Below, one piece after another: positions 32,507 through 35,500 of a stretch of DNA of 64,000 bases. The stretch is from a virus: positions 1 to 64,000 of the IMG/VR virus record IMGVR_UViG_3300048996_000163; one strand, given 5' to 3'. The notes under the pieces are model-generated. The model was not told where the DNA came from. It did no database searches and saw nothing but the letters and a program-made list of their open reading frames with translations. Numbering within the stretch: position 1 is the stretch's first letter; every line of letters begins with the position of its first letter. Position numbers and translations under genes: made by a program.

Positions 32507-35500
32507 GTGACCGCCATGCTCACGCGGTTCGACCTCGACGTGCTGGCGCAAACCGCCCGGCTTCTCGCTGGCGAGACCAACTCTGCGAAGGACGCCAAGA
32601 CTCCCGGCGAGCTCGCGAAGTTGCTCGACCCGAAGACGGTGCAGACCACCGCGCTCGAACTGATCGACGCCGCACTGGTAGACGCGGCCGAGGGTCGCTG
32701 CGATCGCCTGATGATCTCTTTGCCACCTCAAGAAGGGAAAAGTGTTCGCGTTTCGCGGCGCTTTCCCGAGTTCCTGTTGGCTAGGAATCCCAACCTGCGC
32801 ATCGCGATCATTTCCTACGCGCACGGCGTCGCCCGTCGACTCGCCCGCTCCATCCGCGACGACATCTCAGTGCACTCCGGCGCGCTCGGCATTGCGGTCA
32901 GCCCGACGTCGTCGGCCGCGCACGAGTGGAGCATCGCTGGTCACGACGGTGAGGTCTACGCCACCGGCATTGCAGGAAGTTTGACGTCTCGACCTGTGGA
33001 TTGTCTGCGTGGCGATTCTCAAATCATGACAGAATATGGCCATGCGCCAATCCGTCAACTTTGTGAATCCGGAGACGCTGCCCCCCGCGTCCTCAGCTTC
33101 AACCACGCCACCGGAAAGCCCGAATGGCGGCGCATTCTCGCGACCCGCACCATTCACGATCGACCACTCGTCGAAATCGTCACCTCCAGCGGCCGGCGCG
33201 TCGTCTGCACCCCGGATCACCTCATCTACGTCGCCGGACGCGGCTACGTTCGGGCCCATCAGCTACGCGCCGGAGACCGGCTCACCACTGCCGAGCAGAG
33301 TGCCGATCAAATGCCTGCACTGCGCGACGGTGACCACCCGCTTTCGGTCGTACTTCAAGAGGCTCCGCGAGGGCGCGCCGCTCTACTGCTCCAAGACGTG
33401 CCAGTATTCGGCCGCGTCGATGACGCTGACCTGCGAGGGCTGCGGCATCGAGTACGTGAAGCTCCGTTGCGAGATCGAGAAGGCCGAGCGGAAGGGCTTC
33501 ACCCGGGCGTTTTGCACGAGGACGTGCTTCCTGTCCACGTCGAGCAAGAGCGCGTACGAGCGGGCGATGGCGCTCATTCCGCAGCAGCCGATCGGACCGA
33601 TCATCAGCGACGAGCGGGTGCTCACCGATTCGGGCCGGCGTCGGTATTACACGGCGGAGATTGCCGCGCTGTCGGACGGCACCAACCGGAAGCGCCCGTG
33701 CGTACAGTGCGGTGCAATCCGCAAGAGCAAGAGTGCGATCTGCAGGCCGTGCTACCAAGCCGCCCGCGCGTCGACCTACCTGACGCTCACCTGCACGCAA
33801 TGCTCGGCGCCGTTCGTGAAAATGCGGGCCGAGCGCGAGTCTCGCGAGCGGGCCGGTCAGACGAACGCGTTCTGCCGGTTCGAATGCCATCACCAGTGGA
33901 TGCGGGAGAACAACCCAACGGGCCGCTGCGCCCGCTGCGAAAAGCCGATCAAGGTGGACGGCGCGAAGCGGTACTGCTCGGATGGCTGTCGTCTCGCCGT
34001 CCGCGACGAGCGGCGCGAGTCCAAGAGCCGCCCCTGCCCGCAGTGCGGCGTCGTCTACATCCCGAAGTCCTCGCGCCAGCAGTATTGCGACCGGATCTGC
34101 GCAGACCAGGCGCACTCGGAACGCATGATCGGCGCGGGGAACTCGCACTACAAGGACGGCACGAGCTACGCCGAGTGGTTCCGGCAGATGCGTCCCCTGA
34201 TCCTGGAGCGCGACGCGAGCCAGTGCCGGGTGTGCTCGGTTCCGGATCAACTGGTACCTACTGGCCGCAGCGACCACCAGCAGTGGAAGTCGCTTCTCGT
34301 GGTCCATCACCTCAACGAGGTGCCGGCGGACAACCGGCCGGAGAACCTGATCCTGCTGTGCTCGCCGTGCCACATGCGGCACCACAAGTCGGTTTTGACA
34401 CCGTATCCGTGGTTCGCGACCTACGCGGAGAACGCGACACGGTCTATGACATCCAGGTGGACGGCAACAGTAACTTCTTTGCAGACCAGATTCTCGTCCA
34501 CAACTGCCTGATCATCGACGACCCCTACAAGAACGGCGAGCAGGCCGACTCCGAAGCATGGCAGGAAGTCGTCCGCGACTTCTGGACCGAAGTCGCCGTC
34601 CCCCGTCTCGGCCCCGGCGCCATCGTTATCATCGTCCAAACGCGCTGGCGCGACGACGACCTCTCCGGCTGGCTGCAAGCCGAGGACACCGACGGTCACT
34701 GGCGCGTCATCAACATCCCCGCCCAGGCCGACCACGACCCGAACAAGGGCGAGACCGACCCGCTCGGCCGCGAGCCCGGCGAGTATCTCGAATCGGCGCG
34801 TGGGCGTACCACCGAAGAGTGGGAACGCCGCCAGGTCGAGGTTGGCTCCCGCACCTGGAACGCCTTGTTCCAGGGCCGGCCAGCTCCGGCGTCCGGCAAC
34901 ATCTTCAAGGCTGAGTGGTTCCCGTTCTACGACACCCCGCAGTGGTTCAAGCGGGAAGACGGATCGTTCTGGGCTATCGGCTTCGACGAGGTCATCGCCT
35001 CCTGGGACATGACGTTCAAGGACACCGACGGCACCGACTACGTGTGCGGTCAGGTCTGGGGACGCCGCGGCATTCAGGCGTACCTGCTCGACCAAGTTCA
35101 CGACCGCATGTCGTTCGTCGAGACCTGCAACGCTGTCCGGCTCCTTGCCGCGAAGTGGCCGCAGGCGCTGCTGAAGCTGGTCGAGGACAAGGCCAATGGC
35201 CCTGCCGTTCTGTCGGCGCTCGCCCGCAAGGTGCCCGGCCTCGTGCCCGAGCAGCCCGAGGGATCCAAGGTGGCCCGGGCGGCGGCGGTGTCGCCGTTTG
35301 CCGAGTCCGGCAACGTTCTCCTCCCGGCGCCCGAGCTGGCGCCGTGGGTCGACGGGCTCATCGAGGAACTCAAGACGTTTCCCCGGGCCAAGCACGACGA
35401 CCGCACCGACACTCTGACGCAGGCCGTCCGTCGGCTGCTTCTCGATCCGCTGCTGACCGAGATCGACGTCTACGAGGACGAAGAGCAAGAGGACGCCGAA

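Follow-up and report, generated by a model that had tools for sequence, protein, structure and literature searches.

What is an HNH endonuclease gene doing inside a terminase gene, in a frame that the terminase does not use? The question is raised by terL of a metagenome-derived viral contig, IMG/VR record IMGVR_UViG_3300048996_000163. We analyzed the first 64 kb (positions 1 to 64,000, hereafter the window; 69% G+C) of this 132.7-kb record, which has direct terminal repeats. Here terL carries an intein, and the DNA between the two splicing domains of that intein encodes, on the same strand and in the +1 frame, a protein with zinc ribbons and an HNH domain. We consider it very probable that this is a class-1 TerL intein harboring a separate zinc-ribbon HNH gene: the polypeptide read from the nuclease gene in the TerL frame would be filler that is spliced out, and the nuclease would be made separately and would probably serve homing.

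The TerL precursor is matched by Pfam Terminase_6C (E 1.4e-12), and relatives of its C-extein are encoded in 564 of 571 pattern-matched viral stretches. The C-extein opens with CLIIDDP, which we take to be the Walker B region of the ATPase. The intein belongs to class 1, with a Cys1 nucleophile, a block B TPDH, ILVHN|C at 34490-34507, and a Pfam Intein_splicing match above threshold (46.6 bits with a cut-off of 35.8, E 4e-12, TerL residues 181-666). A first-pass annotation, made from the letters alone, had seen normal splicing blocks in this intein, and its CLRGD, CTPDH and ILVHN|C were all found. Among nine aligned inteins C1, T70 and H73 are invariant, as is V481 Y482 D483 ... H500 N501. AlphaFold2 gave intein residues 1-100 a predicted local distance difference test score (pLDDT) of 83-95, and the C-terminal splicing domain 82-94. 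From the intact motifs, the confident models of both halves and the need for TerL in packaging, we infer that the precursor undergoes protein splicing.

The +1 product contains exactly six CxxC...CxxxC/CxxC units. These, together with the GNSHYKDG linker and the HNH domain, had been described in the first pass, which also proposed profile searches of both frames. Those searches separated the frames: phrog_1271 (“HNH endonuclease”) matches the +1 product with E 3.1e-26 and 11 of the 12 PHROG matches are HNH families, while the TerL-frame interior matched no PHROG family. Residues C309, C312, H336, H337, N349, C354, H358, H361 and H362 are invariant in 18 sequences, and the window keeps all of them; C357 is invariant in eight aligned sequences. 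The window thus has the catalytic and metal-ligand arrangement of HNH enzymes (His, Asn and His/Asn framed by two CxxC pairs). Pfam HNH is matched by 13 of 18 relatives, and HNH_3 by 11 of 18 (E <= 0.01). The HNH domain is modeled at pLDDT 76-94, and model residues 278-390 best match EcoKMcrA (Z 7.5, root-mean-square deviation 3.0, 85 residues), with further matches to IscB (Z 7.3), Cap5 (6.8), ScoMcrA (6.8) and GVE2 HNH (5.6). Searching PDB sequences with the HNH profile yielded no match at E <= 0.01, and Foldseek against PDB none at E <= 0.001, zinc-finger arrays ranking top there. An endonuclease VII identity does not fit the product, as there is no Pfam Endonuclease_7 match and 1E7D ranks 34th (Z 3.5). 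The +1 frame is predicted to encode an active zinc-ribbon HNH endonuclease.

Composition also distinguishes the two frames. Over 33300-34385 the +1 frame has a G+C fraction at third codon positions (GC3) of 0.89 and the TerL frame one of 0.525; the exteins have 0.77-0.87, so that the +1 frame has the GC-rich third positions of real genes, as the first reading had it. Arg, Gly, Ala and Pro make up 49.7% of the TerL-frame interior vs. 31.6% of the exteins. Interior residues 100-457 are modeled at pLDDT 25-48, with 82-95 for the splicing domains. By sequence and model this interior is disordered Arg/Ala/Pro/Gly-rich filler. It is also free of stops: over 362 codons none is seen vs. 5.1-6.3 expected when the +1 codons are shuffled or synonymously resampled (P = 0.0034 and 0.0016 for the two schemes, 5000 trials each). 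An antisense reading frame, 33282..34385 (minus strand, 367 amino acids), is open as well, making three of six frames stop-free across the nuclease gene; it matched no Pfam family and is treated as probably a by-product of the GC-rich third positions. The open reading frame (ORF) listing placed the stop of the +1 ORF 7 nt beyond the splice junction (34504|34505), again as first described, so that blocks F and G at the intein 3′ end lie in both frames. Coordinates are collected in Table 1.

Table 1. Features of the terL locus (window coordinates; +1 is relative to the TerL frame).
Feature	Position	Strand	Remarks
TerL precursor ORF	32507..35521	+	1004 codons, own frame uninterrupted
N-extein of TerL	32507..33001	+	ends ...SRPVD
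Class-1 intein	33002..34504	+	501 codons, Cys1...His-Asn; insertion point immediately 5′ of CLIIDDP
N-terminal splicing domain, blocks A and B	33002..33292	+	Cys1 33002-33004; TPDH 33209-33220 (CTPDH 33206-33220)
TerL-frame read-through of nuclease gene	33293..34381	+	low-complexity linker of ~360 residues, predicted to be excised with the intein
C-terminal splicing domain, blocks F and G	34382..34504	+	...VYDIQV...ILVHN; +1 frame reads same DNA as nuclease tail
Longest +1-frame ORF	33036..34511	+	491 codons, ATG 33036, stop TGA 34509-34511; first 88 codons overlap N-terminal splicing domain
HNH-homologous part of +1 ORF	33300..34511	+	403 codons from candidate start GTG 33300
Six zinc ribbons, +1 frame	33312-33401, 33432-33527, 33699-33752, 33792-33887, 33927-33989, 34035-34100	+
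GNSHYKDG linker, +1 frame	~34131-34160	+
HNH domain, +1 frame	~34167-34391	+	His-His at 34305-34310
C-extein of TerL	34505..35521	+	starts at Cys+1 (CLIIDDP...); codons 2-3 supply the TGA ending the +1 ORF

Two dips in GC3 within 32687-33100, to 0.60 (90-nt window at 32687) and 0.43 (at 32957) vs. 0.83-0.87 nearby, lie just 5′ of and at the intein start.

We searched for the same layout elsewhere. Megablast of terL against a phage collection gave a single partial extein match, to Microcystis phage MinS1. A viral-contig scan with the HNH of the window alone found no relative, its patterns being too specific; an alignment-based scan added contigs L083-L089. By tblastn against cultured phages, 41 Brucella phage records have the nuclease under terL, as do Gordonia phage Clown, Synechococcus phage S-EIVl and Ralstonia phage RS-CA1. 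Twelve loci were curated (the window, seven viral contigs, Brucella phage Tb, Clown, S-EIVl and RS-CA1), and a metagenome scan yielded 80 further loci, 74 of them with a recognizable intein or TerL flank. The nuclease is +1 to intein and exteins in 12 of 12 curated loci and +1 throughout in 71 of the 74 flanked metagenome loci; L117, L164 and L173 are mixed, and an in-frame nuclease occurs in no locus. No curated locus has a stop in the TerL frame, vs. 1.2-20.3 expected from shuffles; for seven of the 12, AT-rich ones included, none of 3000 shuffles was stop-free. The TerL frame is likewise stop-free over the HNH in 72 of the 74 flanked loci. Homologs thus keep the HNH out of frame with both frames open, which is the outcome of a check that the first-pass annotation had proposed. 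The HNH frame itself is interrupted by a single stop in L140 and in L173, two of the 80 metagenome loci. The +1 ORF of curated loci ends at variable points, between 47 nt short of the junction and 91 nt past it.

The intein is sporadic. Eighty viral contigs encode a related C-extein, and in 75 of the 77 informative ones there is no intein, the homologues of the N- and C-extein directly adjoining. The same insertion site is occupied by a mini-intein of 153 codons in L056 and by an intein of 324 codons in L081. L056 corresponds to L085 minus the nuclease interior, and L089 to L081 minus the nuclease interior, the +1 frame keeping only the last HNH motif. In L081 a stop severs the first zinc ribbon from what follows, an HNH with one ribbon that begins at an ATG. 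A second insertion is present in several related terL genes: L056 (2066-5050) has, beside its mini-intein, a LAGLIDADG-type intein after a ...PQEGK motif; L089 has ~1 kb of extra DNA within its C-extein; L130 has a similar length of it 3′ of the HNH, ahead of the first match to the C-extein; and L086 has extra DNA in the N-extein.

The nuclease family extends beyond terminases. Among 1.84 billion representative proteins searched, 896 clusters reach E <= 0.001, of which 73 reach E <= 1e-30. Six metagenome loci without intein or terminase flank have stops in both other frames. L150 (3357-4271) and L138 (204-1250) show ordinary free-standing genes, 304 and 348 codons long, that share the architecture of the nuclease. 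The surroundings of these two look bacterial rather than phage. Both keep a ...HHKS..TPFPWL... segment and a tail resembling the phage blocks F/G overlap, and may therefore descend from intein-nested copies.

The frames also differ in the selection that they show. Of 92 candidate sequences, 58 matched the HNH core pattern and were used for a codon alignment and for the diversity and polymorphism analyses, from which the remaining 34 were excluded. In the HNH core of these 58, nucleotide diversity at +1 codon positions 1, 2 and 3 is 0.365, 0.300 and 0.586, the pattern expected when +1 is the coding frame and opposite to that which coding in the TerL frame would require. The tail, where blocks F and G lie, has 0.326, 0.425 and 0.401, which fits the TerL frame. 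The ratio of nonsynonymous to synonymous polymorphism (pN/pS) was taken for 24 pairs at 70-97% core identity, L097 being compared through the core alignment. Its median in the HNH core is 0.35 for the +1 frame and 1.57 for the TerL frame, the +1 value being the lower in 24 of 24 pairs. In the tail the TerL frame has 0.40 and the +1 frame 0.91; 19 of 24 pairs have the lower value in TerL, and of the five that do not, three compare free-standing genes with each other. The window and its relative L096 show the alternation along a single pair: pN/pS is 0.49 (TerL) and 0.98 (+1) in the N-terminal splicing domain, 1.48 and 0.47 in the interior, and 0.38 and 1.35 in the tail. For the window compared with L096, L097, L098, L109 and L119, the +1-frame ratio is 0.24-0.61. 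A dN/dS comparison had been suggested in the first pass with purifying selection expected in the +1 frame; it is found there for the interior, and in the TerL frame for the splicing blocks. As read from these alignments, the layout is kept by selection, and amino-acid constraint swaps frames along the element.

Public sequencing runs provided contigs over the locus. One from run X1 (11.8 kb, depth 117) is identical to the window with no gaps, an agreement that is not independent because X1 may be the source run of the window. Another, from run X3 of a different study (2 kb, depth 12), is ~86% identical, and its only length difference is a net 3-nt deletion at 33909-33912. X3 also has an intein-less allele (depth 30) in which 32970 is joined to 34509 by 35 letters; these are 31+4 extein letters, so the empty allele misses exactly the 1503 nt of the intein. 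X3 is a soil run, and an intein+HNH relative and an empty terL allele thus occur in one sample. The first C-extein residue of the empty allele is Val instead of Cys.

We propose the following scheme. Ribosomes on terL would read straight through the nuclease DNA, producing ~360 disordered residues. Protein splicing would then remove this filler along with the splicing domains, and the terminase would be restored. The nuclease would be translated separately from the +1 frame, starting at GTG 33300 or ATG 33036. It would probably cut or nick the intein-less terL of co-infecting phages, whose repair would then copy the whole unit of intein and nuclease (homing). The sporadic presence of the intein, its deletion derivatives, and the co-occurrence of empty and occupied alleles in X3 are compatible with a homing element passing through acquisition, decay and loss.

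Several observations weigh against this scheme or blunt its support. The window scores just below both Pfam cut-offs, with 22.8 bits for HNH_3 (cut-off 24.8) and 18.6 for HNH (cut-off 21.4), and all fold Z-scores are below 8, a range that the tool grades as middling; for these reasons the HNH assignment rests on motif, PHROG profile and fold list together. A window-like relative, L101, has GTC at the position of GTG 33300. No Shine-Dalgarno-like motif stands at the right spacing before GTG 33300 or ATG 33036, and the promoter scan of 32400-34700 found no plus-strand promoter-like site, its one promoter-like and one terminator-like match both being on the minus strand. The pairs and loci compared are related, so their counts overstate independence. 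The intein 3′ part is 78-83% identical to those of L097, L098, L099 and L101, with 44-68% in the adjacent extein; this excess could reflect dual coding equally well as transfer or co-conversion.

Two start codons are candidates for the nuclease. The first-pass annotation had named GTG 33300, with a weak ribosome-binding site, as one possibility and a +1 ribosomal shift as another. GTG 33300 is plausible, lying four codons 5′ of the first Cys with GTG there in eight of nine loci compared; the comparison of loci indicates ATG 33036 as well. Over the N-terminal splicing domain of 63 distinct loci, +1 stops number 147 vs. 230.7 expected, with control ratios of 0.95-1.14 in six frame and region combinations (the +2 frame there, and both frames of the flanking exteins). 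In 33 of 63 loci the last +1 stop lies no farther than intein codon 15, and in 61 no farther than codon 53; in the window the +1 frame is open from 33030, nine codons into the intein. Moreover, in 33 of 65 loci a start codon (ATG, GTG or TTG) straddles intein residues 12-13 in the +1 frame: 21 of the 29 in which the +1 frame is open from there, vs. 12 of 36 otherwise. It arises from NAT or NGT followed by GGN, and the window has ATG 33036 there by using TAT, a rare Tyr codon in a GC-rich gene. The depletion of stops and the recurrent start point to an upstream start or a frameshift entry, which we rank as a lead because the loci share ancestry. We hold it as a tentative possibility, appreciably less probable than its negation, that the 5′ overlap is the longer one (a start at ATG 33036, or a +1 slippage entry zone) and that nuclease synthesis depends on it. 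With a start at ATG 33036, all but the first 11 intein codons would be dual coding. Were the longer overlap true, the out-of-frame layout would be a stable selected design tying nuclease output to terL translation, not a passing intermediate toward an in-frame intein.

The same openness of the +1 frame from 33030, the same depletion of stops, and candidate starts lacking a Shine-Dalgarno-like motif would also suit ribosomal frameshifting, in which a +1 slip within the N-terminal splicing domain gives a fusion of N-extein, N-terminal intein part and HNH; a second shift back would yield a canonical in-frame HNH intein. We regard this as improbable. In Brucella phage Tb and L111 the last +1 stop comes as late as intein codons 92 and 86, and in both the first start after it is preceded by a Shine-Dalgarno-like motif, the Tb HNH starting at GTG behind one of AAGGAG type. 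In L081 a +1 stop separates the splicing domain from the HNH ORF, which begins at an ATG. The variable ends of the +1 ORF show that a precise shift back is not conserved, and no slippery motif was seen at 33280-33320 by eye, no formal search being made.

Slightly less probable again is that the +1 ORF of the window is a decaying relic, no longer expressed or active, with the intein alone functional. Homing endonuclease genes generally decay after fixation. Among the relatives, stops inside the HNH frame in two of the 80 metagenome loci and the loss of upstream zinc ribbons in L081 are of this kind. The ORF of the window, however, is intact over 403-491 codons with all six zinc ribbons, retains every residue invariant across the 18 relatives, and has low +1-frame pN/pS against each of the five relatives named above.

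We also give little credence to a terminase accessory role, in which the HNH protein would assist cos cleavage and packaging and be nested in terL for co-expression. Such a role was raised as a possibility for brucellaphages (PMC4422536), and HNH genes often adjoin terminase genes (PMC3592412). Nearly all informative TerL relatives (75 of 77) lack both intein and nested HNH, so the nuclease is not a conserved terminase partner. The mini-inteins of L056 and L089 have lost the HNH with TerL still open, the X3 soil run holds an empty allele with an intein-bearing relative, and free-standing relatives of the nuclease occur away from any terminase.

Finally, although the window comes from a metagenome and the run that covers it best is possibly its own source, the idea that an in-frame HNH was shifted by two compensating indel errors near 33295 and 34390 has next to no probability, and the out-of-frame layout is confirmed not to be an assembly artefact: the check for such indels proposed in the first pass found none at either boundary in contigs of two studies, the +1 offset recurs in all curated loci, which include four cultured phages, and in all but three of the 74 flanked metagenome loci, and a two-indel error would give the TerL frame no reason to be stop-free, as it is in the window (P ~0.002-0.003) and in the seven other loci for which 3000 shuffles gave no open frame.

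A separate zinc-ribbon HNH gene inside a TerL intein, as preferred here, would be of interest in several respects. Two genes in one stretch of DNA with amino-acid constraint swapping frames make a clean natural case. The nuclease family supports the view that inteins gain mobility by capturing free-standing endonuclease genes. The family is large, and its cultured carriers infect Brucella, Gordonia, Synechococcus and Ralstonia, making it a good system for the translation of internal overlapping ORFs.

The layout has precedents, and the first-pass suggestion that it might be undescribed was mistaken. A homologous nested HNH is annotated in Brucella phage Tb (NC_019446: terL 2347..4893, “intein present”; nested HNH coding sequence 3170..3856), and a 2015 paper discusses the brucellaphage HNH as out of frame within the terminase (PMC4422536). 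The nucleases of Brucella phages Tb and Pr (Perisivirus) are homologous to that of the window (33.5-38.7% identity, E 6e-14 to 7e-14), and in Tb as here an intein lies between homologous extein parts, with the HNH in +1 and the TerL frame open. The Tb nuclease is shorter (229 amino acids as annotated) with fewer zinc ribbons, its +1 ORF ends 8 nt short of the junction where that of the window ends 7 nt past it, its exteins are ~31% identical to those of the window, and its host is Brucella. Brucella phage records mostly annotate both genes; those of Clown, S-EIVl and RS-CA1 annotate only TerL over the nested HNH, as had been foreseen of standard annotation.

The general class is treated in a preprint on actinobacteriophage inteins whose endonuclease is encoded out of their frame or on the opposite strand (Gosselin, Arsenault and Gogarten, bioRxiv 10.1101/2025.01.02.630785), which proposes that a free-standing endonuclease gene invades an intein. 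Its non-canonical inteins resemble ours in having the endonuclease between the splicing blocks outside the intein frame, a structureless read-through, and TerL among the hosts. Its same-strand case is endonuclease VII-like, in “reading frame 3”, with 1E7D at Z 6.5; the window has a multi-zinc-ribbon HNH in the +1 frame and appears to belong to a different enzyme family, since 1E7D reaches only Z 3.5. Gordonia phage Clown carries the type found in the window, and is named in the preprint's main text only as the largest class-1 intein.

More distant parallels involve other hosts or other gene structures. The ShiLan-domain “hidden” HNH, out of frame in mycobacteriophage DNA methylases (Arsenault et al., 2025; PMC11855218), is likewise nested with the host frame open and has a proposed GTG start without a ribosome-binding site. 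The HNH of the window gave weak tblastn matches under methylase genes (32% identity, E 4e-4), and a nested HNH coding sequence is annotated in Lamina13. The host gene differs there and the similarity is marginal, and unlike TerL the methylase would retain its filler, because there is no intein. An out-of-frame homing endonuclease is also reported for the cyanobacterial dnaX intein (bioRxiv 10.64898/2026.09.14.751524), the host gene being cellular, unlike here. Fractured genes (Dassa et al., 2009; PMC2677866) have, as here, a separately translated endonuclease gene at the endonuclease position of the intein, but their host is split in two and trans-spliced, whereas that of the window has a continuous frame with overlapping genes. 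In canonical HNH inteins (Dalgaard et al., 1997) a HINT domain and an HNH-type endonuclease are fused in frame, an arrangement found in none of the 86 flanked loci (12 curated and 74 metagenome). The layout is thus already known, and what distinguishes the window is its unusually long, putatively DNA-binding array of six zinc ribbons, together with the hint of a longer 5′ overlap.

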